NCBI GenBank assembly: GCA_004321885.1
Contig: SCQK01000013.1
Span: forward strand, 96,001 to 160,000
Reading direction: 5' to 3'
Origin: Patescibacteria group bacterium
Lineage (GTDB): Bacteria; Patescibacteriota; Patescibacteriia; Magasanikbacterales; GWA2-37-8
DNA length: 64,000 bases
Shown here: piece by piece, positions 2,072 to 64,000 of the stretch
How positions within the stretch are numbered: position 1 is the first letter of the stretch
How the letters are laid out: every line of letters begins with the position of its first letter
Notes under the pieces: model-generated
What the model was told of the DNA's origin: nothing
Database searches by the model: none
The model's input: only the letters and a program-made list of their open reading frames with translations
Translations under genes and position numbers: made by a program

Positions 2072-2123
2072 ATAAATTAATTACCCCTCCTTAATCCTCC
2101 CCTTAATAAGGGGGGGGAAATTG

Positions 2124-3347: not shown

Positions 3348-4039
3348 ACTCGTGTTTTAGCGTCGTTCACCAATTCGCCGTCTCTGATGGAAATAACCCT
3401 GCCGGCGTGCTGCGCCACTTCTCGTTCATGGGTGATCAAAACGATAGTCCGACCCTGTTCTTGATTCAATTTTTGAAATGTTTCCAGAACGATTTTTCCG
3501 GTTTTGGTATCCAAATTGCCGGTGGGCTCATCGGCTAAAATCAAAACCGGATTGTTGACCAGGGCCCGGGCAATGGCCACGCGCTGTACCTGCCCGCCCG
3601 ACAATTGATTGGGGCGGTGTTCAAAACGGCTTTCTTCCAAACCGGCCGCTTTCAGAGCCAAAGTGGCGCGCTCCTCCCTTTCCTTCTCTTCCACTTCGGC
3701 GTAGACGAGCGGCAACATTACGTTTCTTATCACCGTGGCCCTGGGCAAAAGATTAAATTGCTGGAAGACAAAACCGATTTTATTTTTGCGCAAATCAGCC
3801 AGTTCATCCTCGGAAAAATCAGCCACGTTTTTGTCGTTAAAAAAATACGCGCCGGAAGTGGGGTTGTCCAAGGCCCCCAAAATATGCATAAGCGTGGACT
3901 TGCCCGAACCGGAAGGGCCCATAATAGCGACAAACTCGCCGTCTTCTATCTTGAAACTAACGCCTTTTAGAGCCTGAAATTGACCGCCATCGCCGCTAAT
4001 GTAGGTTTTTACGACATTCTTAACCTCTAACATAATCAA
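3344..4039 (-). CDS. ABC transporter ATP-binding protein (MacB/LolD-type)
   Basis: Walker [13 protein letters not shown] signature [15 protein letters not shown], Walker [12 protein letters not shown]. Confidence 0.9.
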
Positions 4040-5856
4040 CGGGTTTGCATCCGGAAAGTGCCGCCGCCCGCCCCTCCCGCGCCCCGATTGCCGCCTCCAC
4101 CAAACAAACTGGGGGCCTGCTGGCTTGGCGCGGCGGCCGTCTGGGTGATGGTTCTTGAAACCACCAAATCACCTTCCTTCAGTCCGCTTATAATTTCAAT
4201 GGAAGTATCGTTGGAAATGCCTGTCTCCACGTTTTGCCGGCGCGGCGGCGCAGCCGATATAACGCCCTGATTGCCGCCCGCCTGCGACACGCCGTCTAAA
4301 ATTTCCACGTAACTGGCATCGCCTTGCGTTTTTACGGCGGCCGAGGGAATTAGCAAAACATCTTGTTTCACGTCGGTGATTATGGAAGCCGAAACGCTCA
4401 TGCCCGGCTTGACTTGTTTGTCCTGCGTATCAAAAACGATTTTCACGTTATAGGTGACCACTCCCTGCGTTACCGTTCCAAGCGCATCAATTTCCGCAAC
4501 CTTGCCCGTCATATTCAAACCCTCTATGGCGTCAAACGTCAAAGTGGTTTTTTGACTCGGCTTGACTTTGGCCGCGTCAACCTCGTTTAAAGAAATCTCG
4601 GCCAGCTTCTGTTTGGTAATCAACGTGGCGGCCGCGACTCCGGCTGAAAGAGAATCGCCTTTTTTTACGGTCACCGAAGCCACCACCCCGTCAAACGGGG
4701 CGCGCACCGCGTAATCGGCCAGCTTTTCCCGGGCATCAGTCAAGGCATTCACGCGCTGGGCCACTGCCAGCTCCTGGGATTTTATATCCAACGGATCCGC
4801 CCCCCCCTTTAAGTCGGCCAGCGACAATGTCTTTTCCGTGATGGCGCGGTCGGCGCTGACAATACTATTTTTGGCGCTGTCTATGGCCTGCTTCGCCGAT
4901 AACAAATTCGCCAGCTGGTTGTTGACCTTGGCGGTGAAAGAATCAAGCGATGTCTGGTGGGTGGACACGGCCGCCGGAATCGTGATTCTAATCTGTGATT
5001 GGGCCTGTATCATGGCGTTTTGCGCCGCGTCCACAAAATCATTCATATTTTTCACCGCGTCGGCTATCAGCTTGGCTGTTTCATAAGTTTCAAAAATAAT
5101 ATTTTCCAAAGTGGAAGTGGAAGAGACGCGCGAAGACAATTTGTAGGCGTCAAAGGTAGTATTAAAATCAATGCGCGCCTTGTCATAAGAATTCACCGCG
5201 TCATTTTTATAGCTAACGTATTTGGGATAATTGGCATAATCGTATTGCGCCGACTGCTCCAGATACCAGTTTATGTTTGACTTGGTCGCGTCAAAAGTTT
5301 TGCCGTAAATCATGTCCTCCAATCCCGTCATTGTGGCGGGCAAATCCAAAAAAGCGGCGGCCACGTCATTGTAGCCGTCATCGTAAGACTTGTCTAAATC
5401 GCTTTGGGCCGTGACTTTCGCTTCCCTGGATTGTTCCAAGTCATTTTCCGCCTGCAAAACAGACAGCGGATCAGCCGCCTTTTTCAATTTATTCAAAGAC
5501 AATTTGGCCGAAGTTAGATTTGACTGGGCGTCACGCACGGCTTTCAAGGCGTCCTTGGCGTTAAGCGAAACCAAAATCGCGCCGGCCTTCACTTCTTGCC
5601 CCTGTTTTACCGCCACGTAAAGAACATCGCCCGATGCTTTTGCTTTGGCATCGGCCTGGTTGGACGCCGCTATCTGCCCGCTGCCGGTAATGGAATTTAT
5701 CAACGTTCCTCTTTCCGCGGCCGCCAAAACATATCTAATTTCCGTTTTACCGCCGGCCGCGGCTTTAATGATATAGTAACCTCCGAACGCGAGCGCGATT
5801 ATTATCAGCCCGAAAATTATTTTATGATTTTTCACGAATTGTAAAATTTTTCGCAT
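4036..5856 (-). CDS. HlyD/MacA-like periplasmic adaptor with a very long coiled coil and a Gly-rich C-terminal tail
   Basis: N-terminal TM; lipoyl-like half (LYVAVKQGQEVKAGAIL); roughly 300 aa of predicted coiled coil; beta-barrel half; C-terminal GGGGNRGAGGAGGG tail. Confidence 0.7.
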   Translation of the reverse strand: MRKILQFVKNHKIIFGLIIIALAFGGYYIIKAAAGGKTEIRYVLAAAERGTLINSITGSGQIAASNQADAKAKASGDVLYVAVKQGQEVKAGAILVSLNAKDALKAVRDAQSNLTSAKLSLNKLKKAADPLSVLQAENDLEQSREAKVTAQSDLDKSYDDGYNDVAAAFLDLPATMTGLEDMIYGKTFDATKSNINWYLEQSAQYDYANYPKYVSYKNDAVNSYDKARIDFNTTFDAYKLSSRVSSTSTLENIIFETYETAKLIADAVKNMNDFVDAAQNAMIQAQSQIRITIPAAVSTHQTSLDSFTAKVNNQLANLLSAKQAIDSAKNSIVSADRAITEKTLSLADLKGGADPLDIKSQELAVAQRVNALTDAREKLADYAVRAPFDGVVASVTVKKGDSLSAGVAAATLITKQKLAEISLNEVDAAKVKPSQKTTLTFDAIEGLNMTGKVAEIDALGTVTQGVVTYNVKIVFDTQDKQVKPGMSVSASIITDVKQDVLLIPSAAVKTQGDASYVEILDGVSQAGGNQGVISAAPPRRQNVETGISNDTSIEIISGLKEGDLVVSRTITQTAAAPSQQAPSLFGGGGNRGAGGAGGGTFRMQTR

Positions 5857-7900: not shown

Positions 7901-10447
7901 ATGTTTGAAGAACTCCGCCCCATTCTTGATTTCCTCTCCCAAAATAAAGCATTCATGCTTGTACTCCCCTACCTCGGCGGAGCGTTCGCGCTTTGGATTT
8001 TTTTGAAAATCCTACGTTCGGCATTTCACGCCGGCGGACAAAACAGCCGCGCCTATCACAAAGCCGTCCTTGTCATCAAAGTGCCCAAAGAAAAAAAACA
8101 CGAGGGCCAGCAAAACACCACGGCCGCCGAAGACAACATCACTCAAATCCGCGAGCAAATCGCCATTGCCGAAACACTCTTCTCGGCCATCGCCGGCCTG
8201 CGCCGCGAAAAAAGTTTTTTCCGCTGGCTAATCGGGCGCAACGACCACCTATCGTTTGAAATCGCGGTCATTGACAGCAAAATAAATTTCTACGTGGCCG
8301 TGCCCGAAAAATTAAAAAACTTCGCCGAACAGCAAATCCACGCCCAATACCCACACGCCGAAATATTGGAAGAGCCCGATTACAACATCTTTAAGCCGCA
8401 AAGCCATATTTTGGGCGCCAGCTTGTGGTTCAAATACCGCTCGGCTTTTCCGTTCAAGACCTACAAAAAAATTGACAGCGACCCCCTGCTTGCTTTGCTG
8501 AATCCGCTAAGTAAAATTTTGGACAACGAGGGCGCGCTTATCCAATACATCGTGCGGCCGGCCTCGCCCAAATGGCGACGCCAGGGCGTGCACATGATTC
8601 GCGACATTAAAGAGGGACAGAAATTTGAATACGTGGCCCGGCGCGGAAAAATTTTACGCTCCCTGATGCGTTGGAAAAAAGCGATTTTCCCCAAACGGCC
8701 AGACCCTTCCAAACAAACCAGCGTAGCCGAACCTTATCACTTGACTCAAATGGAAGAAGAGATGGTGAAGTCAATGGAAGAAAAGCTCTCCCACGGCGGG
8801 CTGGAGATTACGATTCGCGTCGTCAGCTCGGCCGACAATAAAGAAAAGGCCCAGCTCAATTTGGAAAATATCTTGAACGCGTACAGCCAATACAATATAT
8901 ATAGGTATGGCAACTCGTTTGGCGCGGCCGTGCCCCGCCGGCCCGGCGCCCTGATACGCGATTCCATTTTCCGCAACTTTGACGACAAGCGCTATATGGT
9001 GGCGGCCACTGATGAAATGGCCAGCTTTTGGCACTTGCCCAACCCGCACACCGAGACCCCGCACATCAACTGGCTGGGGGCGCGCAAGGCTCCGCCGCCG
9101 GTCAACATGCCGAAAGAAGGCGTAATACTGGGCCGGGCTGTTTACCGAACCGAGGAAACCATTGTGCGCAGCCAGCGAACCGACCGCCGCCGTCATCTGT
9201 ACACCATCGGCAAATCCGGCGTAGGCAAATCCAACCTGATACAAAATATGGCCGTTCAAGACGTGCAAAACGGGGAAGGTATCTGCATCATAGACCCGCA
9301 CGGGGATTTCGTGGAATACGTTTTACAACACGTACCCAAAGAACGCGCCGACGACGTGATATATTTTAATCCGGCAGATATTGAGCGTCCGATCGGTTTG
9401 AACATGCTGGAAGTGCGCACCGAAGAGCAAAAGGATTTCGCCACCCAGGAAATGATTTCTATTTTTTACAAATTAGTCACGGACCCGGCCATGATCGGCC
9501 CCATGTTTGAACATAACATGCGCAATGTGATGCTGACCCTGATGTCGGACCTGGAAAACCCGGGCACCATCGCCGAAATTCCGCGCATGTTCACCGACGA
9601 TGAATTCGTGAAGGGCTGGAAGAAAAAATTGACCGACCCCATGGTCTTGGCTTTTTGGGAAAAAGAAATGGCCAAGACCTCGGACTTTCACAAATCCGAA
9701 ATGCTCGGGTATTTAATTTCCAAAGTCGGCCGCTTTGTGGAAAATGCCATGATACGCAATATCATCGGCCAGTCGCATTCGGGTTTTAATTTCCGCGAAG
9801 TGATGGACAGTAAAAAAATTCTGCTGGTGAATTTATCCAAAGGTTTAGTGGGAGAAATAAACTCAAACCTTTTAGGTCTGATTATCGTATCCAAACTGCA
9901 AATGGCCGCTCTGGAGCGCGCCTCCATGCCCGAAGAACAGCGCCATGATTTTTACTTATATATGGACGAGTTTCAAAATTTTATTACCGATTCCATCGCC
10001 ACGATTTTGTCCGAAGCGCGAAAATACCGCCTGTGCCTGGTGATGGCGCACCAATATTTGAAACAGCTGGAAGACAACAAGGGCAAGACCGCGGTGCGCG
10101 ACGCGGTGCTGGGCAACGCCGGCACCATCGCCGCTTTCCGCATGGGCGTGGAAGATGCCGAGGTGCTGGTGAAAGAATTCACGCCGGTCTTTAACGCGTA
10201 CGACTTGGTAAATATAGAACAATACACGGCCTATGTAAAATTGCTTATTGACAACACGGCCGCGAAACCGTTTAATATGATGACCTACCCCCCCACCCCG
10301 GGCAACAAGGAACTGGCCGCGGCCATCAAAGAGCTGTCGCGCCTGAAATACGGCCGGCCGCGCGAAATAGTGGAAGCCGAGATAATTGAACGGGCACAAC
10401 TGTCCGCGATAGGGGGGAAAGCCGAGTTAAGCGAAGCGTCGCTCTAG
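7901..10447 (+). CDS. membrane-anchored TraD/VirD4/HerA-like (FtsK-HerA superfamily) P-loop ATPase with a roughly 415-aa N-terminal module
   Basis: Walker A YTIGKSGVGKSNL; IIDPHGDF box; DEFQNF and EARKYRLCLVMAHQYLKQL motifs typical of coupling-protein/HerA ATPases; N-terminal TM. Confidence 0.7.
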   Translation: MFEELRPILDFLSQNKAFMLVLPYLGGAFALWIFLKILRSAFHAGGQNSRAYHKAVLVIKVPKEKKHEGQQNTTAAEDNITQIREQIAIAETLFSAIAGLRREKSFFRWLIGRNDHLSFEIAVIDSKINFYVAVPEKLKNFAEQQIHAQYPHAEILEEPDYNIFKPQSHILGASLWFKYRSAFPFKTYKKIDSDPLLALLNPLSKILDNEGALIQYIVRPASPKWRRQGVHMIRDIKEGQKFEYVARRGKILRSLMRWKKAIFPKRPDPSKQTSVAEPYHLTQMEEEMVKSMEEKLSHGGLEITIRVVSSADNKEKAQLNLENILNAYSQYNIYRYGNSFGAAVPRRPGALIRDSIFRNFDDKRYMVAATDEMASFWHLPNPHTETPHINWLGARKAPPPVNMPKEGVILGRAVYRTEETIVRSQRTDRRRHLYTIGKSGVGKSNLIQNMAVQDVQNGEGICIIDPHGDFVEYVLQHVPKERADDVIYFNPADIERPIGLNMLEVRTEEQKDFATQEMISIFYKLVTDPAMIGPMFEHNMRNVMLTLMSDLENPGTIAEIPRMFTDDEFVKGWKKKLTDPMVLAFWEKEMAKTSDFHKSEMLGYLISKVGRFVENAMIRNIIGQSHSGFNFREVMDSKKILLVNLSKGLVGEINSNLLGLIIVSKLQMAALERASMPEEQRHDFYLYMDEFQNFITDSIATILSEARKYRLCLVMAHQYLKQLEDNKGKTAVRDAVLGNAGTIAAFRMGVEDAEVLVKEFTPVFNAYDLVNIEQYTAYVKLLIDNTAAKPFNMMTYPPTPGNKELAAAIKELSRLKYGRPREIVEAEIIERAQLSAIGGKAELSEASL

Positions 10448-10477
10448 TGTCATTCCGGCCCCCGAGCCGGAATCCAG
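10448..10477. repeat. family-A hairpin repeat GTCATTCCGG-N7-CCGGAATCCAG
   Basis: other copies 11562-11588 (inside dnaX), 21342-21368, 21505-21530, 50745-50773, 55957-55991, 61391-61419 (inverted), 63974-64000 (partial). Confidence 0.85.
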
Positions 10478-10481
10478 TAAC

Positions 10482-11987
10482 ATGTCCACCCTCTACCGCC
10501 TCTACCGCCCGCAGAAGTTCGCCGACGTGACGGGCCAAGAGCACATCATCCAAACCATAACCAACGAGATATGCGCCGCTAAAACGGCGCATGCTTATCT
10601 ATTCTCGGGCCCGCGCGGCACCGGCAAGACCACCCTGGCCCGTCTGCTGGCTAAGGCCGTGAACTGCCAAAACCGCAAAGATGGGGAATCTGAACCGTGC
10701 AATGAGTGCCCATCTTGCGCGGAAATTTCCGCCAGCCGCAATATAGACGTAATGGAAATAGACGCGGCCTCGCATACGGGCGTGGAAAATGTGCGCGAAA
10801 ATATCATAGACAGCGCGCAATTTCAGCCCACCAAATCCAAATACAAAATTTTCATCATAGACGAGGTGCACATGCTTTCCACTCCGGCTTTCAACGCCCT
10901 GCTCAAAACCCTGGAAGAGCCGCCGGCGCACGTGATTTTCGTGCTGGCCACCACCGAACTGCAAAAACTGCCGGCTACCATTGTATCGCGCTGTCAACGT
11001 TTTACCTTCAAAAAAATCGGCTTTGACCAGATGATGAGCAAACTTTTGAAAATCTGCAAAGACCAGGACGTAAAGGTGGACAAAAAAGTGCTGGAGCGGG
11101 TGATAAACAAAAGCGACGGCTGTATGCGCGACGCTGAATCCCTGCTTGGTCAAATTTTAACGTTGAATCAAAAAAATATCGGGCCCGAAGACGCGGAAAT
11201 GATTTTGCCCACGTCCAATGCGCGACAGATTTTGAATTTCGTGGATGCAATTTTGAACCGCGACGTTAAAAGCGCCGTGGCTCTGATAAACGAACTGGTT
11301 TCCGACGGCGTGAATCTGGAGCAATTCGCCTATGACGCGCTGGAAATTTTGCGCCTGCTGATGATTTTGCAATACGACCCAACCAAGGAAATTTTGGATT
11401 ACAGCGACGAAGACGCCAAACTGATTAAAAAAATGACCAAACAGGCGCCGGCCGAGCAGATTATAAAATTAACGGACGCGCTGATGGCGCGCCGAGCGCA
11501 AATTAAATCCGCGCCTATTCCCCAGCTGCCCCTGGAGCTCTTCGCCGTGGAATTCTCAAACTGTCATTCCGGACTTGATACGGAATCCATCGCCGCCAAC
11601 TGTCATTCTGAGGCCCCGCTTAGCGGGGACGGAGAATCCCTCTCGCCATCTATCACGCAAAAAATCAAAACCACTCTGGACGAAATTAAAAACAAGTGGC
11701 ACGATATAACTGCCGGCCTCACCGAACAAAATCACTCACTCGGCTTTATCCTGAAAATGGGCGAACCGGCCAGAATGGAAGGAAATGAACTGTATTTGCG
11801 CGTGCCATTTTCCCTGCACAAAGAAAAAATTGAAGAGCAAAAAACCAAAAAATTGATAGAGGGCGCGATGACAGACGCCTTTGGGGAAAAAATTTGCCTG
11901 ATTTGCGAGGTGACGCAGGCGCAAAATGATGATGGCGAAATCACCCAGCTCGCGAGTGAATTTGGGGGTGAAGTTGTCTCACTCTAA
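10482..11987 (+). CDS. dnaX: DNA polymerase III subunit gamma/tau
   Basis: YRPQKFADVTGQEHI, AHAYLFSGPRGTGKTT, Zn module CNECPSC, box IFIIDEVHML; carries an in-frame repeat insertion at 11555-11613. Confidence 0.9.
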   Translation: MSTLYRLYRPQKFADVTGQEHIIQTITNEICAAKTAHAYLFSGPRGTGKTTLARLLAKAVNCQNRKDGESEPCNECPSCAEISASRNIDVMEIDAASHTGVENVRENIIDSAQFQPTKSKYKIFIIDEVHMLSTPAFNALLKTLEEPPAHVIFVLATTELQKLPATIVSRCQRFTFKKIGFDQMMSKLLKICKDQDVKVDKKVLERVINKSDGCMRDAESLLGQILTLNQKNIGPEDAEMILPTSNARQILNFVDAILNRDVKSAVALINELVSDGVNLEQFAYDALEILRLLMILQYDPTKEILDYSDEDAKLIKKMTKQAPAEQIIKLTDALMARRAQIKSAPIPQLPLELFAVEFSNCHSGLDTESIAANCHSEAPLSGDGESLSPSITQKIKTTLDEIKNKWHDITAGLTEQNHSLGFILKMGEPARMEGNELYLRVPFSLHKEKIEEQKTKKLIEGAMTDAFGEKICLICEVTQAQNDDGEITQLASEFGGEVVSL

Positions 11988-21333: not shown

Positions 21334-21377
21334 AATTATTATGTCATTCCGGGCTTGACCCGGAATCTATTTCCGTG

Positions 21378-21840: not shown

Positions 21841-21967
21841 ATAATCTAATCGCTGTCATTGCGAGCGAGCCACAAGCGAGCGCGGCAATCCCTTCCGTGT
21901 TTGGGATTGCTTCGCCCCTTCGGGGCTCGCAATGACATTTAAGTTTCAAAATAATTTTTACCTGTTT

Positions 21968-22733: not shown

Positions 22734-22760
22734 ACTACACAATTCGTTGTGGCAACAATC

Positions 22761-22846
22761 GTCATCCTGAACTTGTTTCAGGATCCCCACTGTCCAATTC
22801 GCCGACTCGCTCGATCGGAGATGCCGAAACAAGTTCGGCATGACAG
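22761..22846. repeat. family-C composite hairpins GTCATCCTGAACTTGTTTCAGGAT ... ATGCCGAAACAAGTTCGGCATGAC
   Basis: related copies 23161-23203 (ATGCTGAAATAAATTCAGCAT) and 46141-46157 (CCTGAAACAAGTTCAGG). Confidence 0.7.
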
Positions 22847-22865
22847 TGACGCGGCTGGAAACTTA

Positions 22866-23159
22866 TCACTCCCATTCGTCGCTCAAGTCTTTCAAAGTGG
22901 GATTAAGTCCTTTTACTAAATTTATTTTCCACTGACGATGCCAATTTTTGATTTGTTTCTCTCTGTTAATTGCGTCACGTGGATCCAAAAAAACTTCGTA
23001 ATAAACTAACTTTTTCAGATTATACTGTTTTGTAAATCCCTCATTGATTCCATTTTTATGTTCTTCAAGCCGACGTTCTAGATTGTTCGTTATACCTACA
23101 TATAAAACCGTGTTGATGATGTTTGTTAAAATATACACATAAAATGTTTTCCCCTCCAT
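22866..23159 (-). CDS. GIY-YIG nuclease superfamily protein (UPF0213-like)
   Basis: YVYIL...LYVGITNNLERRLEEH matches the GIY-YIG motif. Confidence 0.85.
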   Translation of the reverse strand: MEGKTFYVYILTNIINTVLYVGITNNLERRLEEHKNGINEGFTKQYNLKKLVYYEVFLDPRDAINREKQIKNWHRQWKINLVKGLNPTLKDLSDEWE

Positions 23160-23201
23160 ACGATTTGCGATTGGAGATGCTGAAATAAATTCAGCATGAC
23201 A

Positions 23202-26156
23202 TTACTGGCCGTGACAGCGCTTGTATTTCTTCCCGCTGCCGCAAGGGCAAGGGTCGTTGCGGCCCACCACTTTGCCGGCCTCGTCGCGCACTTTTTTCCC
23301 GGCCGGCGCGGCGCCGTTGTCGCTGGTCTTGCTGGCCCCGCTAAACATCAGATTCCCCGCCTGCATCACCGACGGCGCTATCTGTATTCCCAAATTTACT
23401 TTATAAACCAAATACACCACTTCTTTTTGAATGTAATTAAGCAGTTCGTTGAACATCCGGTAGGTTTCTTTTTTGTATTCCACCAGCGGGTCGTGCTGGG
23501 CATAGCCGCGCAGGCCAATGCCGGTGCGCAAATAATCCACGGCCACCAAATGTTCCACCCACAGATTGTCTATGGCGCGCAGCAATACTTGTTTTTCTAT
23601 CTCGGCCATCATCTCGGGCGGGGCTTGTTTGACCAGCAGTTCCTCGTATTTATACTTGGCCGTTTCTATCAAAAATTCTATGAGTTGCGTCCTAATCGTA
23701 ACATCATCAACCCGCCCGCCCACCGGCGGGGCGCCAAATTCTCCGATTTTTTTCTTTTCATCGTCAGACAGCGGGAAAATGGTCGTCATTGTTTCGGCAA
23801 TTTCTTTCACATTCCAGTCACTGCGGTCTTCGGCGTTGGTATGGAACGAAACCACCTCTTCAATTTCCTGTTCTATCATTTCCAAAATCATGACGCGCAA
23901 ATTTTTTACCCCCTCTTTCGTCTCCCCCTTATCAAGGGGGAGAGAAGCGGTGGACGTCTCCGCCATATCACGAGAGAGAGAAGCGGTTGATTCAAAAGCG
24001 CGCAATACCTCGCGCCGTTTGCCGTAAATCACCTCGCGGTGCTTGTTGAGCACGTCATCGTACTCCAGCAAATGTTTGCGCGTGTCAAAATGCAAACCCT
24101 CCACTTTGCGCTGGGCGCTTTCTATAATGCGCGTAATCATCCCCTGCTCTATGGGCATGTCATCTGGCACTTTAAGGGCGTTCATTACCCCGCGTATTCT
24201 GTCGCCGGCAAAAATACGCATCAGGTCGTCTTCGGTGGAAAGGAAAAATTGCGACTGCCCCGGGTCGCCCTGGCGCCCGCTGCGGCCGCGCAACTGGTTG
24301 TCTATACGCCGGCTCTCGTGGCGCTCGGTGCCCAGCACAAACAAACCGCCGGCCGCGCGCACGCGCCCGGCTTCTTCGGGTACAGGCGGATTACCGCCCA
24401 AAATTATATCCACTCCCCTGCCGGCCATGTTGGTGGCCAGGGTCACGCGCCCGGGCTGGCCGGCCTGCGCGATTATCTCGCCCTCGCGCTCATGATTCTT
24501 GGCGTTTAGAATTTCATGCGCTATTCCCTCTCTTTGCAAATGCAAACTCAAGGCCTCGTTTTTCTCCACTGATACCGTGCCTATCAAAACCGGCTGGCCC
24601 TTGGCCTGTAATTCTTTTACCATCTGGGCGATGGCCTTGTGCTTGGCCTCTTCGGTTTTATAAATCCTGTCCGGAAAATTCGTGCGCTGGCTGGGTTTGT
24701 TCGGCGGAATTACCACCACTTCCAGTTTGTAAATTTTGCCGAACTCTTCGGCCTCGGTGACGGCCGTGCCGGTCATGCCCGACAGCTTTTCGTACAAACG
24801 GAAATAATTTTGAAAAGTAACCGTGGCCATGGTCTGACTTTCATGTTGAATGACCACGTTTTCTTTGGCTTCTATGGCCTGATGCAAGCCCTCGCTATAG
24901 CGGCGGCCCGGCATTTTGCGGCCGGTAAATTCGTCCACTATGAGCACCTCGCTGTTTTCCACGATATAGTCGCGGTCGCGCAAGAAAAGCGTCTGCGCCC
25001 GCAAAGCCTGCTCCACGTGGTGCACGGTACGCACCCCGCCCTCGGCGTAAATATTGTCCACGCCCAGCCATTTTTCCATTTTAGCGATGCCGGCTTCGGA
25101 AAGCGTGGCCGAGCGCATTTTTTCGTCTATGTTAAAGTCCTCGTTTTCTTTCAAGCGGCGCACCAGCTCGGCGAATTTGTAATACATGTCGGCCGCTTTT
25201 TCGGCCGGCGCGGAAATAATCAAGGGGGTGCGGGCTTCGTCTATTAAAATGGAGTCAACCTCGTCCACGATGGCGTAAAAAAACGGCCGCTGTACCATCT
25301 CGCTCAAATTTTGCACCATGTTGTCGCGCAAATAATCAAAGCCATATTCGTTGTTGGTGCCATAAGTGACGTCGCAGCCGTAGGCCTCTTGGCGCGAGCA
25401 GGGTTCCAAAAATTCCGTTTCCACTTTGTACATTCCTTTGGCGTCGCGTTCTTTGTCTGCTTCACTGCCCTCCTGTAACCCCACCCCCTGCCACCACACC
25501 AAAGATTTTGGTGTGGTGGCCTGCCCATCCCCTAATAGGGGAGGGGTTTTTGCGTAGCGAAAAGAAACACCAAGCTGTTGAATCACGCCCACGCTCAATC
25601 CCAAAGCATCATATATCTGCCCCATCCACACAGCGTCGCGTTTGGCCAAATAATCATTCACAGTCACCACGTGCACTCCCCTGCCGGCCAAGCCGTTTAG
25701 ATACACAGGCAAGGTAGCCACCAGGGTTTTGCCCTCGCCAGTGCCCATCTCAGCGATAGCGCCGCTATGCAAAGCCATGCCGCCCTTTAGCTGGACGTCA
25801 AAATGGCGCATACCAGTCAAACGTTTTGATGTTTCGCGCACCACGGCAAACGCCTCGGGCAAAATATCGTCCAGGGTGGCGCCGTCGGCCAAACGCTTTT
25901 TGAACTCATCGGTTTTGCCCCGCAACTGTTCCAAACTCAAAGACGCCATCCCGCTTTCCAGGGCATTGATTCTTTCCACGAGCGGCTTGTATCCGGCAAT
26001 CACTTTCGCATTCGGGTCGCCAAAAATTCTGCTAAAAAAAGACATAGAACCACTAATCTTTTTCGCTAATCTCACTAATCGCGAACGCCGTAATTCTATC
26101 ATATTTACGCGGAAAAGCAAGGGGTCGCGCGGTACACTGGCTCGCGCGATGAACAA
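23202..26156 (-). CDS. secA: preprotein translocase ATPase SecA
   Basis: DEAD motor motifs, TYGTNNEYGFDYLRDNM, C-terminal Zn finger CPCGSGKKYKRCHG; carries two in-frame repeat-derived insertions (23908-23986, 25468-25538). Confidence 0.95.
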   Translation of the reverse strand: MFIARASVPRDPLLFRVNMIELRRSRLVRLAKKISGSMSFFSRIFGDPNAKVIAGYKPLVERINALESGMASLSLEQLRGKTDEFKKRLADGATLDDILPEAFAVVRETSKRLTGMRHFDVQLKGGMALHSGAIAEMGTGEGKTLVATLPVYLNGLAGRGVHVVTVNDYLAKRDAVWMGQIYDALGLSVGVIQQLGVSFRYAKTPPLLGDGQATTPKSLVWWQGVGLQEGSEADKERDAKGMYKVETEFLEPCSRQEAYGCDVTYGTNNEYGFDYLRDNMVQNLSEMVQRPFFYAIVDEVDSILIDEARTPLIISAPAEKAADMYYKFAELVRRLKENEDFNIDEKMRSATLSEAGIAKMEKWLGVDNIYAEGGVRTVHHVEQALRAQTLFLRDRDYIVENSEVLIVDEFTGRKMPGRRYSEGLHQAIEAKENVVIQHESQTMATVTFQNYFRLYEKLSGMTGTAVTEAEEFGKIYKLEVVVIPPNKPSQRTNFPDRIYKTEEAKHKAIAQMVKELQAKGQPVLIGTVSVEKNEALSLHLQREGIAHEILNAKNHEREGEIIAQAGQPGRVTLATNMAGRGVDIILGGNPPVPEEAGRVRAAGGLFVLGTERHESRRIDNQLRGRSGRQGDPGQSQFFLSTEDDLMRIFAGDRIRGVMNALKVPDDMPIEQGMITRIIESAQRKVEGLHFDTRKHLLEYDDVLNKHREVIYGKRREVLRAFESTASLSRDMAETSTASLPLDKGETKEGVKNLRVMILEMIEQEIEEVVSFHTNAEDRSDWNVKEIAETMTTIFPLSDDEKKKIGEFGAPPVGGRVDDVTIRTQLIEFLIETAKYKYEELLVKQAPPEMMAEIEKQVLLRAIDNLWVEHLVAVDYLRTGIGLRGYAQHDPLVEYKKETYRMFNELLNYIQKEVVYLVYKVNLGIQIAPSVMQAGNLMFSGASKTSDNGAAPAGKKVRDEAGKVVGRNDPCPCGSGKKYKRCHGQ
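25468..25538. repeat. family-D CCCCTCCC...GGGAGGGG element with a CCACCACACCAAA-N-TTTGGTGTGGTGG core
   Basis: near-identical copy at 46641-46706; long copy 33832-33952; shorter CCCCTCC..GGAGGGG copies 2084-2120, 16096-16143, 23908-23986, 32401-32436, 39687-39733, 40690-40723, 47323-47364, 51559-51597, 57288-57324, 58103-58140. Confidence 0.85.
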
Positions 26157-30988: not shown

Positions 30989-30997
30989 TGAACCTTG

Positions 30998-31291
30998 TGG
31001 GTGGAGTAGGATTCGAACCTACGAAGGCAGAGCCAGCAGATTTCATTTATCCAAAAGTTTCCTTCTAGCATGGACTATATCTTTATCCTATCCGCCAATC
31101 TGGCCGATAGGATACTCTGGTATCTAGTCTCTACGGCGCCCCCGACTTTGCCGGGGTTCCCACGGTATTAGCATGCCCGCCAGTTGGCGGATTTAGCTTT
31201 CACCGTTATCCCAGAGAGTTCATCCTAAAGTTACCTTTAGGAGCTGCGTTTCAACACAGTCTGCTCCAGTTGACCACTTTGGTATCCACCC
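30998..31291 (-). tRNA. tRNA-Tyr (anticodon GTA) interrupted between nt 35/36 by a 212-nt group I intron (exons 31256-31291 and 30998-31043)
   Basis: joined exons GGGTGGATACCAAAGTGGTCAACTGGAGCAGACTGT|AAATCTGCTGGCTCTGCCTTCGTAGGTTCGAATCCTACTCCACCCA: type-II tRNA with a long variable arm and an anticodon loop CUGUAAA identical to E. coli tRNA-Tyr. Confidence 0.8.
31044..31255 (-). ncRNA. group I intron (IC3-like, Azoarcus/cyanobacterial tRNA-intron type) in the tRNA-Tyr anticodon loop
   Basis: contains GUAGAGACUAGA, identical to the P7/P3 core of the Azoarcus tRNA-Ile intron; P3-like GCUAAAUCCGCC; 5' exon ends in U and the intron ends in G. Confidence 0.7.
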
Positions 31292-31310
31292 ATCTTCTTA
31301 AATTTTCTTG

Positions 31311-32393: not shown

Positions 32394-33194
32394 TTACTTT
32401 TCCCTCCCTTTTATAAGGGGAGGGGCAGGGAGGGGTAGAACAGCATTCTTCGCGATGTCCAGCCATGTTTCCAGCTTGGCCGAAGCGCCCCCCACCAGCA
32501 CGCCGGAAACGTTCTCGCATTTCAGGTAGCCGGCGATGTTTTCCGGCCGCACGCTGCCGCCGTACAAAATTATTACAGCAGCCGCAGGCAAAAGTTCAAC
32601 GGCCAATTTATCTATAAAATTGTGCGCCACGGCGCAGGCCTCCGTATCATCGCAAGCGTTGCCGGTGCCAATGGCCCATACCGGTTCGTAGGCGATAAAA
32701 AGCGGCCTTTCGTCTTCTTTCGGCCAGGCCAAATTTTGCAAAGCGGCCCGAAGTTGGATTTCCAAAACTTCCTCTGTCTTACCCTCTTCTCTTTCCTTGG
32801 CTGTCTCGCCCACACACAGCACGGGCGTGAGTCCGGCTGCCAAAATCGCTTCCAATTTTTGCCTCACTTCATGATTGCTTTCGCCAAATTGATGCCGGCG
32901 CTCGGAGTGGCCGACCAGCGCGTATTCGCAACCGGCCGCCTGAAACATCTGGGCCGAAACTTCGCCGGTGTAGCCGCCCTTGTCCACCCAATAAACGTTT
33001 TGCGCGCCCACGCCGATGCCGGCGTCGCGCAGTACCTGGCCAGCGCTGTATAAAGAAAGCGCGCTTGGAAAAACAGTCATTTTCACGTTCGTCGGAAATT
33101 TTTCCGCCTCGCCGGCCAAAGCGTTGGCCAAAATATTGCTCTCGTCAAAATCCAAATACATTTTCCAGTTGGCGAAAAGATAAATTTGTTTCAT
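32394..33194 (-). CDS. tpiA: triosephosphate isomerase
   Basis: FANWKMY, VGHSERR, AYEPVWAIGTG, GGS...N; the C-terminal tail PLPAPPLIKGREK is encoded by a family-D repeat. Confidence 0.9.
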   Translation of the reverse strand: MKQIYLFANWKMYLDFDESNILANALAGEAEKFPTNVKMTVFPSALSLYSAGQVLRDAGIGVGAQNVYWVDKGGYTGEVSAQMFQAAGCEYALVGHSERRHQFGESNHEVRQKLEAILAAGLTPVLCVGETAKEREEGKTEEVLEIQLRAALQNLAWPKEDERPLFIAYEPVWAIGTGNACDDTEACAVAHNFIDKLAVELLPAAAVIILYGGSVRPENIAGYLKCENVSGVLVGGASAKLETWLDIAKNAVLPLPAPPLIKGREK

Positions 33195-34579
33195 ACGAGT
33201 AATTTCAAAATTTCTTCTTTTGATTTCGGCCCGATTACCGCCAACCGCATTCGCTTCCAATCAAAAAATCTTCGTGCCGCGCCACGCACCTGCCCGGCCG
33301 TAACGCGCTCTATTTTTTCCAACTGCTGTTCCGGCGTCTCTATTTTATCAGCGAACCAGTGCTGGCGCGCGAACCACTCGGCCACGGCGCTGGAATTTTC
33401 CATGGATAGCGCCATGCGGCCCGAAATGTTTGTTTTGGCGTCGTCTAATTCTTTTTTGCTGATGCCTTTATCCGCAATTTTTTTCAGTTCGCTTTTAATT
33501 ACCGAAAGCGCTTCGCCCAGCCGGTTGGAATCCAAACCAGCGTTAATGGTGATAACGCCGGTTTCGTTGTGGCTGACCCCGCCGGCGTGAATCATATAGG
33601 CCAATCCCCTTTTCTCGCGCACCTCCACGAACAAACGTGAACTCATGCCGGAGCCGAGCACGGTAAGCAATACCGCGTTCGCGTACCTGATAGGATCGTT
33701 GTAGGCGAAACCCGCGAACCCCATCACAACGTGCGACTGATCTATTTTTCTCTGTTCAACGCTAACCCGTTTTTCCAACGGCAATTCGCCCGCCGGCCAG
33801 CTGAATTTTATAAAATTTTCTTTGTTGAAATACCCCTCCTTCCCGCTCCCCTTTATAAGGGGAGGGAAACTATCGGCAGTTCCTCCCCCTTGATAAGGGG
33901 GAGGCTCGCCACCACACCAAATGCTTTGGTGTGGTGGCGAGGAGGGGGTATTCGCGAAATACTTCGCGGCCAACTTTTTTATTTTTTCCCGCGGCGCGTT
34001 GCCCGACACCGCCAGCGCCATATTCGCGGGCGTGTAAGCATTTTTGTAATACGCGAACAGCTCGTCCCGCGTAATATTTTTTACTGTCTCGGCCGTGCCG
34101 GCCACATCCCGCCCCAGTGGATTGCCGCCAAACACCGTGCGGTCAAAAACCAGCTCCACGGCCATGCTCGGATTATCTTCATACATCTTTATTTCTTCGG
34201 CAATCACTCCCCGCTCTTTGGTGATTTCTTTTTCGTCAAAAGTGGAATCAAAGAGCATGTCCGCCAAAATATCAAAAGCCAATTCCACCCGCCGGCCGTC
34301 TATTTTAATATAATAGCCGGTATAATCCTTGTAGGTAAAGGCGTTATAATCCGCGCCCACCGCGTCCAACTCGCGCGAAATATGCTGGGCCGTGGGACGT
34401 TTTTTTGTTCCTTTGAACATCAGATGCTCCACAAAGTGCGAAGCCCCGGAAATTTTCGCTGTCTCATAGCGCGAACCCACCGGCAATAAAACCATCACCG
34501 TGACGGCTTTGGTGCCGCCCGTCGGCGCCGTGATTAGCGACAAGCCATTTTTTAATTTTGATAGCCGATGCATAATCAC
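33191..34579 (-). CDS. M16 family zinc metallopeptidase (insulinase-like)
   Basis: HxxEH inverzincin motif HFVEHLMFKGT; two-domain M16 fold; carries a roughly 35-aa in-frame repeat insertion (33832-33952). Confidence 0.8.
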   Translation of the reverse strand: MIMHRLSKLKNGLSLITAPTGGTKAVTVMVLLPVGSRYETAKISGASHFVEHLMFKGTKKRPTAQHISRELDAVGADYNAFTYKDYTGYYIKIDGRRVELAFDILADMLFDSTFDEKEITKERGVIAEEIKMYEDNPSMAVELVFDRTVFGGNPLGRDVAGTAETVKNITRDELFAYYKNAYTPANMALAVSGNAPREKIKKLAAKYFANTPSSPPHQSIWCGGEPPPYQGGGTADSFPPLIKGSGKEGYFNKENFIKFSWPAGELPLEKRVSVEQRKIDQSHVVMGFAGFAYNDPIRYANAVLLTVLGSGMSSRLFVEVREKRGLAYMIHAGGVSHNETGVITINAGLDSNRLGEALSVIKSELKKIADKGISKKELDDAKTNISGRMALSMENSSAVAEWFARQHWFADKIETPEQQLEKIERVTAGQVRGAARRFFDWKRMRLAVIGPKSKEEILKLLV

Positions 34580-39679: not shown

Positions 39680-39740
39680 ACTATTTACCCTTACCTCCCT
39701 CCCCCTTAAAAAAGGAGAGGACAGGAGGGGGTATTCAATT

Positions 39741-40637: not shown

Positions 40638-40732
40638 ATAAACATTTTACCAAAAAAACACAGAACTGGCAATGACAGCGACATTGCTACCCCTCCCAAC
40701 CCTCCCCTTATCAAAGGGAGGGATTATAGGGA

Positions 40733-46114: not shown

Positions 46115-46152
46115 AATAATTACCCCTCCCTCACCCTCCTCCTGAAACAAGT

Positions 46153-46632
46153 TCAGGACAGGCTCTTAAAAAGGGGCGGGCTGGATGGGGTCACCCGCGC
46201 TTCGCCGCTGTATTGGGGGGCGATGTAGCGGCCGGGTTTAGCTCTTTTGAAACGCGCCAGCGCCTGGGCCGGAGTCCAGCCGGGTTCCAGAGAGATTACC
46301 GGGATTTTCAGGGCGTAGGCCATGGTGTTGCCGAACGTAGCGGCCAGACGACTGGCGGTAAAACTCTCGGCGCCGCTCACCACCCCGATGCCTTTAATTT
46401 TTTTCAGCGGCAATTTTTGTTTTTTCAGGAATTTGTCAAATGCTTCCACGATGGATGTCCTATTACCACTAGATTCCCCCGTACTTAGTCGGGGGAATGA
46501 CAATCGGGCTCCACAGGCCTTCGGCACTATGGAGCCAGCGATAATTCCACAGGCCTTCGGCACTATGGAGCCAGCGATAATTCCGGAAACGCAAATAGCC
46601 CCTTCTTGGTTATTATCTACAATAAGAAACAT
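46153..46632 (-). CDS. TsaB/YeaZ-like (Kae1-associated) N-terminal domain protein, short, with a tandem-repeat-encoded duplication
   Basis: KKIKGIGVVSGAESFTASRLAATFGNTMAYALKIPVI resembles TsaB; GIIAGSIVPKAC x2 is encoded by a 39-bp tandem repeat. Confidence 0.45.
   Translation of the reverse strand: MFLIVDNNQEGAICVSGIIAGSIVPKACGIIAGSIVPKACGARLSFPRLSTGESSGNRTSIVEAFDKFLKKQKLPLKKIKGIGVVSGAESFTASRLAATFGNTMAYALKIPVISLEPGWTPAQALARFKRAKPGRYIAPQYSGEARVTPSSPPLFKSLS
46505..46582. repeat. 39-bp tandem direct repeat x2 (GGCTCCACAGGCCTTCGGCACTATGGAGCCAGCGATAATTCC), family F, preceded by a family-E hairpin at 46475-46500
   Basis: related single copy 61421-61463 (GGGCTCCACAG-CCCCGACTGAGTCGGGG-ACTATGGAGCC) and a partial copy at the window end 63983-64000. 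Confidence 0.75.
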
Positions 46633-46713
46633 AAAAAAAACCCACCCCCTGCCACCACACCAAAATCTTTGGTGTGGTGGCCTGCCCCTCCCCTAATAGG
46701 GGAGGGTAGCTCG

Positions 46714-47322
46714 CTATGTTAGCTCATCAATCACTGTCGTATGCTTGCCCTCAAACACGCTATACAAAAACTTATCACCTATTTCTCGCCTTTCACTAAA
46801 CTCTTTCTCGCTTAACGTAGTGTACCTAATAGGCTTTCCCAGATATTTTTCATATGCCGCGATGGTCTTGGCCACCACCAGCGGCTTCAAATTGCCCACT
46901 AAAAGCACATCAGTCACATTTTCCGAACCGGTAAAAAGTCCGGTCAGCATAAAAAGCTTCAAACGGCCGGCTTTTGTTTTTAAGTCCTCAATCAATTTTT
47001 GCTCTTTAATCAGATTCTCTTTGGCCAAAAGCGACTTTAATTCAAAAAACAGGGTGCAGTCGGTTTGCAGACGGTAGTATTTGGAGCGCGTGGTGCCGGC
47101 GTTGTCCGGGTCCTTGGCTATTTTTTCCAAGGATGAAACCGGCGCGAGCAAACCGATGTCTTCCAAATTGGCCAGCTCGCGGCGCACCGCGTTCATCTGC
47201 CCCTCTATTTCGCGCACTATTTCGCGCACGTAAAACGACCTCTGCGGGTGCTTAAAAAGCAGGCTCAAAATCTTGATTCTGGTCTTTGAACCAAAAAGTT
47301 GTTCAAGCATATAATGTACCAA
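46714..47322 (-). CDS. winged-HTH transcriptional regulator-like protein
   Basis: N-terminal GSKTRIKILSLLFKHPQRSFYVREIVREI wHTH; C-terminal domain unknown. Confidence 0.5.
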   Translation of the reverse strand: MVHYMLEQLFGSKTRIKILSLLFKHPQRSFYVREIVREIEGQMNAVRRELANLEDIGLLAPVSSLEKIAKDPDNAGTTRSKYYRLQTDCTLFFELKSLLAKENLIKEQKLIEDLKTKAGRLKLFMLTGLFTGSENVTDVLLVGNLKPLVVAKTIAAYEKYLGKPIRYTTLSEKEFSERREIGDKFLYSVFEGKHTTVIDELT

Positions 47323-47434
47323 TCTCCCCCTCTCCTTTTAGAAGGGGAGGGACAGGGAGGGGTAAATTATCAATTGCGCTATTCTTTAATACATAGTATA
47401 ATAATTACACTTCAAAAAGTAAAGATGCGCCAAT

Positions 47435-50704: not shown

Positions 50705-50837
50705 ATCCCGCCAAAGGCGGGCAAGAGCGCAAATCGACCTATACTGTCATTCCGGCTTCCGAGCCGGAATCCAGTTCTTTTTTGCACCTCGGCAGGTAAT
50801 TAAGCCCTTTCGGACACCTGCTGTCTATGGTGACAAT

Positions 50838-51554: not shown

Positions 51555-51732
51555 AATACCCCCCTCCTCGCCTCCCCCCTAAGAGGGTGGAGAGAGTTAG
51601 ATGGACCATTATGAGGAAGATTTTGACGGGAATGCTTTATTTGTTCCGGCCTGTTCGCTTTCCAGCGGCTCGGCGTGCGATAGGCTGTCTTGCCTTTTTG
51701 CGCCCGGTTGGATGAATAATTTTTCACACCTA

Positions 51733-58099: not shown

Positions 58100-58171
58100 A
58101 ATACCCCCTCCTCTATCCTCCCCCTAAAAGGGGGAGGAAGTGTTAAAGCCCACCCCCCTTAGATGGAAATT

Positions 58172-61286: not shown

Positions 61287-61472
61287 AGTGTTTTTTTGCA
61301 ACAGTAATATTTCTACAATTTTTCAAACATTGTGGAAAATATTAAGCCGGACAGAGATTCCTCGGCTTCGCCTCGGAATAACAATCTACTGGATTCCGGC
61401 TCGTGGGCCGGAATGACAGCTGGGCTCCACAGCCCCGACTGAGTCGGGGACTATGGAGCCAGCAATTGACAA

Positions 61473-63008: not shown

Positions 63009-63758
63009 CTATTTTTTCATCAATTTCTCAATCACCTCCACGTCATTATTTTTCGCGAACGCTCCGTAAATCGCTTTCAATTCCTTTTGATTAAACCCGT
63101 AACCCAATTCAAGCGCTTGCTTGGCCGAGCCGTACGCTTTATCCAAATCATTCTTGTTTAGATAAATCAACGCCAGCATCCAGTGCGATTCGGCAATGCC
63201 CGGCGCCAAGTCAATGGCTTCCTGCGCCAGCTTGATCGCCTCGTCATTCTTGCCTTGCAACATCTTGGCGCGCGCCAAACCCCAGATAATTGTTTGCCGG
63301 CGCGGACTGTAGGGCAGAATTTTTTTATACTGCTCCACGGCCGCTTCCAAGTAACCGGGGTTTAGCCAAAAATCATAACCGTCTTGATAGGCCCTGGCCA
63401 AAATCGCGCCGGCGCGCGCGTCGGCCGGATATTTTTCCAAATAAAATTTCATGGCGCCCTCTCCCACCGAATACATATCCGCGGCCAATTTTCGGTAATC
63501 GGAAAAAGCAAAATCCGGGTGCTGGGCCAGCCATACCAAGAAAAATTGTCCGAATTCAAAAGAGATGTCGTAGGCGTACGGATTTGGTTTTATTTTTATC
63601 GCCTCTTTGTGCAGTTTGATGGCCGAGCCGAAGTCGGTCATCGCTTTTCTGATGGCCAGGGCCGAAATATGGTCGGCCTTGGCCGGAATAATGGAAAAGC
63701 GGTTGATGAGAATGAAGGCGGCGAAAAAAATAAGCAAGATGGCGAGGAGGCGTGTCAT
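63009..63758 (-). CDS. TPR-repeat membrane protein (start moved past a repeat-derived N-terminal extension)
   Basis: N-terminal TM LLAILLIFFAAFILI; TPR-like helices. Confidence 0.6.
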   Translation of the reverse strand: MTRLLAILLIFFAAFILINRFSIIPAKADHISALAIRKAMTDFGSAIKLHKEAIKIKPNPYAYDISFEFGQFFLVWLAQHPDFAFSDYRKLAADMYSVGEGAMKFYLEKYPADARAGAILARAYQDGYDFWLNPGYLEAAVEQYKKILPYSPRRQTIIWGLARAKMLQGKNDEAIKLAQEAIDLAPGIAESHWMLALIYLNKNDLDKAYGSAKQALELGYGFNQKELKAIYGAFAKNNDVEVIEKLMKK

Positions 63759-64000
63759 TGCGAGAAGCCCCGACGTAACGTCGGGGCGACGCGGCAATCT
63801 CTCATTTGCCTGGGATTGCTTCGGCCTTTCACGCCTCGCAATGACATCCACCCCGGCCAAAAGATAGAAAAAAAATAAATACGATGACTCGTTTTCAAAA
63901 ACAAACAAATTTTGAACCAGGTGCGCGGTAAAAAAAGCGCCCAGGCCAATGGCTAAAATCCAATCACGATTATCTGGATTCCGAGCCCGAAGGGCTCCAT

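Follow-up and report, generated by a model that had tools for sequence, protein, structure and literature searches.

The secA gene of a Patescibacteria group bacterium (GenBank assembly GCA_004321885.1, contig SCQK01000013.1) carries two in-frame, stop-free copies of a short palindromic repeat that occurs at several other places of the 64,000-nt stretch analyzed here (positions 96,001–160,000 of the contig, hereafter the window). We consider it likely, with a probability of about 0.8, that both segments are selfish palindromic repeats, comparable to the Rickettsia palindromic elements (RPEs) or to MITEs (miniature transposable elements with inverted repeats), which survive in this gene only in permissive loops of the encoded protein. 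When the whole secA gene was compared with the rest of the window by blastn, matches were obtained at exactly two places, insert 1 and insert 2 (Table 1). A preliminary description of this DNA had already placed two such copies in SecA. Its coordinates (25468-25538 and 23908-23986) lie within about 10 nt of those found here (25477-25546 and 23916-23990), the peptides that it quoted for both copies are correct against the translation, and the frame is kept as it had stated, with 984 codons open across both inserts. The open reading frame (ORF) begins with TTG. An ATG at 26045 would give a 947-aa product and is probably the true start, as orthologues begin with MSF..KIFGDPN; residue numbers refer to this 947-aa version. 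The NCBI annotation of the protein (TAN33098.1, from a Patescibacteria metagenome-assembled genome) has 966 aa.

Insert 1 is a composite of two hairpins, A and B. Positions 25480-25545 align with the intergenic segment 46641-46706 with 93.9% identity over 66 nt (E 6.5e-24, blastn). Leaving aside a 3-nt loop that is flipped, the two copies differ by 1 substitution in this 66-nt alignment and by 2 in the 69-nt repeat pair. Hairpin B (25490-25520) is over 31/31 nt the exact reverse complement of 46651-46681 and, to judge from this comparison, has flipped within otherwise collinear flanks; it also matches 33908-33938 (blastn). Given this near-identity to an intergenic copy, and a nearest SecA orthologue that shares no more than about 76% of its residues, insert 1 appears to be recent. 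At site 1, the position of this insert, the closest orthologues read ...SFKYNAEKRIKPEEDVSEGSEIDKERD, with YNAEKRIKPEEDVSEGSE as the empty-site reading, and the window SecA reads ...SFRYAK[TPPLLGDGQATTPKSLVWWQGVG]LQEGSEADKERD. The segment aligned to residues 153-222 comprises 70 aa in the window protein vs. a median of 55-56 aa in its relatives, and the net gain at the site is 14 aa. The codon alignment places the insert directly 5′ of ancestral Glu-Gly codons.

Insert 2 is made up of two 36-nt units in tandem plus one codon. The units share 83% identity; one of them (23919-23954) is intact, while the other (23955-23990) has decayed and its hairpin is eroded. The hairpin core of the insert, 23922-23942, is identical to 33883-33903 (21/21 nt, E 8e-5, blastn). 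At this second position, site 2, the closest orthologues read AFENEKNNTLPEGAKTMREMIL (empty-site reading, FENEKNNTLPEGAKTMR) and the window SecA reads AFE[STASLSRDMAET STASLPLDKGET K]EGVKNLRVMIL. The segment aligned to residues 676-722 measures 47 aa in the window; its length in the closest orthologues is 30 aa, so that the net gain amounts to 17 aa. Predicted junction peptides of the SecA inserts are TPPLLGDGQATTPK, SLVWWQGVGLQEGSEADK and DMAETSTASLPLDK. The second copy of the preliminary description stands as a tandem 2 × 36-nt repeat, except for its last 12 nt, which are probably ancestral codons. These nucleotides (23904-23915) resemble a terminus of the repeat and probably represent host sequence directly 3′ of the insert, because GAG GGG GTA (EGV) aligns with the ancestral EGA/EGV codons of orthologues; one of them, P0012, reads EGVKTMR at this position. 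The alternatives for the extent of insert 2 are 23916-23990 and 23904-23990. A 36-nt perfect tandem duplication (GIIAGSIVPKAC twice), with the same unit length as that of insert 2, is present at 46510-46581 within ORF 46153..46632.

The two inserts had been assigned to one repeat family, and we agree, as the composite at 33830-33950 holds both hairpin types between inverted termini. The family is modular and palindromic, and 12 copies of 38-121 nt were located in the 64 kb. Its building blocks are C-rich/G-rich hairpins of the CTCCCC(C)-loop-(G)GGGGAG type and the hairpin GCCACCACACCAAA-NNN-TTTGGTGTGGTGGC, of which there are three copies; one of its termini is NTAC-CCCCTCC, the opposite one GGAGGGG(G)-TA. 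The complete terminal inverted repeats TA-CCCCTCC ... GGAGGGG(G)-TA bound the copies at 33830-33950 and 39691-39733, and most others have one such end. The sequence GGAGGGGTA was observed 6 times vs. 0.24 expected, a number reached by no shuffled sequence. The pattern CTCCCCYT-N5-RGGGGAG gave 20 strand matches, that is, 10 distinct hairpins, vs. 0.29 expected, and again no shuffle was as high. Family copies also fold much better than shuffled sequence (z from -2.9 to -9.4), and their termini pair in the predicted fold. The composite at 33830-33950 folds as three hairpins, with the termini pairing around them (-83.5 kcal/mol, z -9.4), and the RNA fold of the intergenic composite 46638-46708 reaches -46 kcal/mol (z -5.9). 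The majority of copies lie in short intergenic spacers. Those in-frame within the 64 kb are three internal ones (two in secA, one in a gene for an M16 peptidase) and two C-terminal tails. In at least three copies (46120-46192, 51562-51600 and 58101-58140) the G-rich end stands at Shine-Dalgarno distance from a start codon. A known RNA family was considered and rejected, as no copy gave an Rfam match, and a role as terminator is unsupported because a scan for consensus terminators flagged none of the intergenic copies.

Table 1. Coordinates in the window of secA, its two inserts and the further copies of the repeat family.
Feature	Position	Strand	Description
secA ORF	23202..26156	minus	984 aa from TTG, open frame without stop
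Insert 1	25477..25546	minus	composite repeat of about 69-70 nt; codes for T167-G189 (TPPLLGDGQATTPKSLVWWQGVG), 23 aa, upstream of TYGTNNEYGFDYLRDNM
Hairpin A of insert 1	25524..25546		CCCATCCCCTA / TAGGGGAGGGG, one mismatch; perfect in the intergenic copy
Hairpin B of insert 1	25490..25520		GCCACCACACCAAA / TTTGGTGTGGTGGC, 3-nt loop
Insert 2	23916..23990	minus	tandem 2 × 36 nt plus codon K710; codes for S686-K710 (STASLSRDMAET STASLPLDKGET K)
Hairpin of intact unit, insert 2	23921..23943		TCTCCCCCTT / AAGGGGGAGA, 10-bp stem
GAGGGGGTAAAA (E711-K714)	23904..23915	minus	resembles repeat terminus GGAGGGGTA; aligns with ancestral EGAK/EGVK
121-nt composite	33830..33950	minus	TA-CCCCTCC ... three hairpins ... 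GGAGGGGG-TA; in-frame in M16 peptidase ORF 33191..34579
Intergenic composite of insert 1 type	46638..46708		fills spacer of 81 nt between ORFs 46714..47322 and 46153..46632
Family copy	32395..32437		last ~13 codons and stop of tpiA (32394..33260, minus)
Family copy	46120..46192		3′ end of ORF 46153..46632 and ribosome-binding region of the gene for a PEP-utilising-domain protein
Family copy	2081..2118		intergenic
Family copy	39691..39733		intergenic, TA at both ends
Family copy	40686..40725		intergenic
Family copy	47325..47364		intergenic; 94% identical to 32407-32437
Family copy	51562..51600		directly upstream of gene starting at 51554
Family copy	58101..58140		directly upstream of lgt (start 58099)

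Outside the window, the exact pattern of hairpin B gave 0 matches in the GTDB representative genomes and 0 in viral contigs. In JGI metagenomes, its identical 13-bp stem (CCACCACACCAAA…TTTGGTGTGGTGG) was found in nine contigs (L081-L089) of 38-57% GC, once per contig, outside any obvious gene and usually after TTAC/ATAC-like bases. These matches show a hairpin B module that is widespread across what appear to be different organisms. One of the contigs, L086, resembles the window composite 46638-46708. No closer secA was obtained from the contigs with the stem. A database search with the repeat-encoded peptides returned no match, not even the source SecA itself, so this search is insensitive to such short, biased peptides.

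The secA gene is intact. The ORF matches five Pfam families (SecA_DEAD, SecA_PP_bind, P-loop_SecA, SecA_SW and SEC-C; E 6e-123 to 3e-10), which make up a complete domain set: the DEAD-like motor with both nucleotide-binding domains (NBD1 and NBD2), the preprotein cross-linking domain, the wing/scaffold domain and the SEC-C zinc tail. Solved SecA structures are matched at E values of about 1e-240. The Walker A motif GEGKT, DEVD, TNMAGRGVDI, RHESRRIDNQLRGRSGRQGDPG and CPCGSGKKYKRCHG are all present, the arginine-finger region and the zinc-binding tail are kept as well, and so is every residue that is invariant among 62 orthologues. From its sequence, the gene looks functional.

Structural comparison places both inserts in loops. 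In the alignment to Bacillus subtilis SecA, insert 1 falls between residues 157 and 166 and insert 2 between residues 621 and 624, positions that we take, following the domain names used for 1M6N/1TF5, to lie in NBD1 and where the scaffold helix ends and the helical wing domain starts, respectively. An AlphaFold2 model built from the 62-sequence alignment (mean predicted local distance difference test score, pLDDT, of 73.7) agrees with SecA structures at TM-scores, normalized to target length, of 0.68-0.83. Here, coil with pLDDT below 50 is predicted for residues 170-189, and the scaffold helix (635-696) is followed by coil at 697-715 (block means of 52-59) and by the next helix at 716-735. 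Both inserts are thus predicted as coil, with pLDDT of about 40-59, between confident helices and strands and outside core secondary structure, and by the model they are in flexible surface loops. The preliminary description had stated that insert 1 lengthens its loop by about 45 aa relative to Escherichia coli SecA. The loop is indeed longer than in E. coli and B. subtilis, but most of these residues are ancestral, since a long NBD1 loop is a feature of the clade and is also found in Thermotoga maritima SecA, where a comparable insert aligns through the window loop; by this alignment the long loop is ancestral to the clade, and the repeat itself accounts for 23 aa.

To evaluate the two sites among relatives, we used the best 120 homologues in the database, together with 80 loci of GTDB representatives, with 56-76% identity; the SecAs compared are of the Magasanikbacteria type of Patescibacteria. 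The closest orthologues (about 76% identical) have neither insert, so that the empty sites for which the preliminary description had proposed to look do exist at both positions. Insertions of at least 8 aa in low-occupancy columns were then surveyed in 81 aligned SecAs. Site 2 carries an insertion in 27 sequences and site 1 in 16; short insertions near residue 806 were found in 13 sequences, insertions in the C-terminal linker in 9, and those elsewhere are single cases. At each main site, each data set has 15-26 sequences that are at least 10 aa longer than the median. In this alignment, sites 1 and 2 are the main insertion hot spots. The inserted peptides vary by lineage (VIPSE(Q/R)SDEES..., SLRG...ASLGMT, SLLEEGREMLVNA.TSPTPPSRG.L, SPLGRGE...). 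Eight inserts from six lineages (L001, L002, L012, L018, L037 and L039) were folded and are whole-insert palindromes of -27 to -66 kcal/mol, and five of the eight have copies elsewhere in their own locus. They include those of L018 (CAZXIF010000054.1), where one 75-nt element is present at both sites in the same frame (3399-3488 and 4971-5072, 97% identical), L002, with one repeat family at both SecA sites and just upstream of secA, and L001, with a 38-nt copy of its site-1 insert, 95% identical, outside secA. The longest perfect stem in the inserts of other lineages averages 5.5 bp vs. 4.3 bp in controls and is of at least 8 bp in 6/40; this signal is weak, as inserts are broken up in the alignment and older copies are no longer perfect. 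Some long SecA inserts are simple low-complexity sequence.

Repeats of this kind form part of the coding sequence of other window genes too. In the M16 (insulinase-type) peptidase, the 121-nt composite lies in the inter-domain linker, where it contributes some 35 aa (…TPSSPPHQSIWCGGEPPPYQGGGTADSFPPLIKGSGKEGY…); no counterpart exists in the L008 and L017 orthologues. Hairpin B is translated as ATTPKSLVWW in SecA and as PPHQSIWCGG in the peptidase, where the copy is read in one of only 2/6 fully open frames. As the hairpin is read in different frames, the encoded peptide is not what is conserved. The repeat in tpiA supplies a C-terminal tail (…LPLPAPPLIKGREK*), and TpiA orthologues stop about 13 residues earlier; in ORF 46153..46632, the repeat (46162-46192) provides the tail and the stop (…TPSSPPLFKSLS*). 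Two adjacent hairpins of another family, of the type TGTCATTCCGG…CCGGAATCC, are present at 11562-11640 in the dnaX ORF (10482..11987, plus strand), where they encode CHSGLDTESIAANCHSEAPLSGDGESL in-frame within the variable linker that follows domain III; intergenic copies of that family were found at 10442-10478, 21342-21375, 50739-50775 and 61393-61414.

Taking these data together, the following sequence of events would explain the secA segments. A short, modular, non-coding palindromic repeat would be copied around the genome, mainly into the spacers between genes, by a trans-acting transposase or nuclease encoded outside the window. Copies would have landed in secA after the split from the sequenced relatives and, the gene being essential, only in-frame, stop-free copies in permissive surface loops would persist. 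Such a filter of frame, stop and loop would explain the location of both copies in the two loops of SecA that vary most in length. The copies would be transcribed and translated as loop extensions of 23-25 aa rich in Pro, Gly, Ser and Thr, SecA remaining functional. Decay and slippage after insertion would account for the mismatch in the hairpin of insert 1 and for the duplication of insert 2 with erosion of the hairpin of one unit. The mode of spread, the translation of the inserts and their neutrality are inferred. The TA flanks are no more than suggestive of a transposase that duplicates TA.

Several observations weigh against this interpretation. TA is found at both ends in only three family copies and could be part of the repeat; divergence from the orthologues is too great for a base-exact reconstruction of the empty sites. 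At site 1, about nine ancestral codons were apparently lost alongside the gain, which means that either the insertion departed from a clean cut-and-paste or a deletion came afterwards. A Pfam scan of 60 of the 66 window ORFs (the other six are of 70-143 aa) revealed no transposase, no REP-associated tyrosine transposase (RAYT; REP, repetitive extragenic palindrome) and no other obvious mobilizing gene. Many long SecA inserts of other lineages have no repeat copy detectable within their 10-kb flanks; with these and the low-complexity inserts in view, the length changes in SecA cannot all be assigned to repeats. Finally, the sequence derives from a single assembly of one metagenome-assembled genome and has a single database member.

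Among the alternatives, a local origin deserves most attention, although we regard it as improbable. According to it, the hairpins arose or spread locally, by template switching, by slippage or by ectopic gene conversion seeded at GGAGGG-like microhomologies, and the family would in part consist of repeated de novo palindromes around Shine-Dalgarno-like GGAGGGG seeds. Template switching reportedly creates hairpins de novo. The position of both secA inserts directly 5′ of an ancestral, terminus-like GAG GGN (Glu-Gly) would fit such seeding, and so would the intergenic copies that abut ribosome-binding sites; the A-type hairpins vary in loop and stem details among copies, the 36-nt tandem duplication in insert 2 is of the kind that slippage produces, and hairpin B has opposite orientations in two copies that are collinear in all other parts. 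What speaks against a local origin is that secA and an intergenic site have in common a 66-nt composite of two hairpins in the same order and spacing, with 94% identity, which argues for the copying of a pre-formed unit rather than for local invention. Moreover, hairpin B has no similarity to host sequence, and several copies have defined inverted termini.

Less probable still is a gain of function, with the inserts favored by positive selection as new modules of SecA loops or as mRNA hairpins by which ribosomes are paused or secA is regulated. Gains at the same two sites recur in many lineages, very stable mRNA structures are predicted at the insert positions, and the inserts in SecA, the M16 peptidase and DnaX are located at or near domain junctions, all of which such a function would lead one to expect. 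Nevertheless, the insert sequences are unrelated between lineages, the frame of hairpin B varies within a single genome, most close orthologues do without any insert, the hairpins in secA are decaying (the mismatch in hairpin A, the eroded unit of insert 2), and the predicted structure is low-confidence coil. Least credible of all is an artefact, be it a mis-assembly driven by repeats, a classic source of assembly errors, in this single assembly, or an inactive secA backed by a second functional copy elsewhere: the flanks of both inserts are collinear secA in one frame of 984 codons without stop, no residue invariant in the 62 orthologues has been lost, and palindromic inserts of a comparable kind are found in-frame at these sites in many genomes assembled independently in different studies.

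Two other candidates were tried and rejected. The inserts are too short for inteins and have no splicing motifs. Inserts of the byp type break the frame or carry stops, so that the ribosome must skip them, and both secA inserts are in-frame and stop-free.

The neighborhood contains further small repeats and elements. Immediately downstream of secA is a 97-aa ORF for a stand-alone GIY-YIG nuclease domain (22866..23159, minus strand), which is flanked, within 22758-23197, by three hairpins of another family (ATCCTGAA/TTCAGGAT, ATGCCGAA/TTCGGCAT and ATGCTGAA/TTCAGCAT); the ORF and its hairpins may form a small selfish cassette. A third small repeat family (CGCGGCAATCCC…GGGATTGCTTCG…CTCGCAATGACAT) has copies at 21881-21938 and 63790-63847, 79% identical; the latter falls within the 5′ part of ORF 63009..63908, which encodes a TPR protein, and may precede the true start of that gene. 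A match to the Rfam model of group I introns (31051-31263, minus strand, 61.7 bits) has tRNA halves on either side (~30990-31300). Upon removal of the intron, ARAGORN calls tRNAs, one of them tRNA-Tyr(GUA), and an anticodon loop of CU-GUA-AA is compatible with the ends of the exons; here, a group I intron would interrupt a tRNA gene. The gene next to dnaX (7901..10447, plus strand) encodes an 848-aa protein with the ATPase domains of TrwB/VirD4-type coupling proteins.

Rickettsia is the best-known case of palindromic elements that lie in-frame in essential genes. Our full-text literature searches, in which no paper on the candidate phyla radiation (CPR) was examined in full, brought up no report of such elements in CPR/Patescibacteria. 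That different repeat families have used these two loops of SecA repeatedly across a CPR class adds to the interest of the case, which amounts to a natural experiment on the capacity of individual loops in a well-studied motor to take up 15-60 further residues and on the conversion of selfish DNA into protein sequence. For annotation, it accounts for length outliers and for odd low-complexity peptides in CPR proteins. A broader proposal, which we hold to be doubtful, is that CPR genomes host an RPE-like process on a large scale, in which several unrelated hairpin families recolonize the few permissive loops of essential proteins, namely SecA sites 1 and 2 and the linkers of the M16 peptidase and of DnaX; if true, selfish hairpin DNA would be a main source of protein length variation in the radiation. 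Beyond selection alone, there could be a site preference at the DNA level, for instance for positions directly 5′ of GAGGG or of a Shine-Dalgarno-like sequence.

Insertions in SecA itself offer a first comparison with known systems. Two lineage-specific insertions, the NBD1 insert of T. maritima SecA, which occupies the position of site 1, and the VAR subdomain in NBD2 of E. coli SecA, show that the protein tolerates additions to surface loops. The insertions of both species differ from those described here in being stable, lineage-wide protein segments and not recent copies of a dispersed repeat.

REP and REPIN sequences, which RAYT (Y1) transposases mobilize, resemble the window repeats as short, GC-rich imperfect palindromes with many copies and a short tag by the stem (here NTAC-CCCCTCC), and in both cases a trans-acting enzyme is presumed. 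REPs are extragenic by definition and have a GTAG or CGTC tag (PMC3733652). Three window copies lie inside coding sequence, the ends in the window, (A/T/C)TAC-CCCCTCC, are neither GTAG nor CGTC, and the window ORFs scanned include no RAYT.

MITEs, such as the QMITEs and the Correia elements of Neisseria, and the window repeats are alike in their small size, multiple copies, lack of coding capacity, terminal inverted repeats and strong potential to form hairpins. Correia elements duplicate TA. QMITE1 and QMITE2 of Coxiella burnetii are mostly intergenic and sometimes in-frame or the source of C-terminal residues and a stop (PMC5896051), and tpiA and ORF 46153..46632 show this same pattern of C-terminal residues and stop. 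The window elements differ in their size, at the extreme low end for MITEs, and in having no cognate insertion sequence or transposase among the 60 window ORFs scanned.

RPEs, like the gene-overlapping MITEs, provide a parallel in behavior. They are dispersed palindromic repeats, a large share of which lie in-frame in unrelated housekeeping genes that they leave unbroken, and they are translated as an extra peptide at positions compatible with the fold (PMC10969869). The window family is likewise dispersed, multicopy, palindromic, in-frame and stop-free, absent from orthologues and located at fold-compatible loops. It differs in its size (elements of about 40-121 nt, modular, vs. RPEs of about 100-150 bp), in having no single conserved peptide, as hairpin B is used in different frames, and in the repeated occupation of the two SecA loops by unrelated families, which is not mentioned in PMC10969869. 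Its host belongs to the Patescibacteria/CPR and not to the Rickettsiales, and because the host phylum differs, membership in the RPE family itself is unlikely. The analogy suggests that the window repeats nevertheless work as RPEs do, a likeness that is one of behavior.

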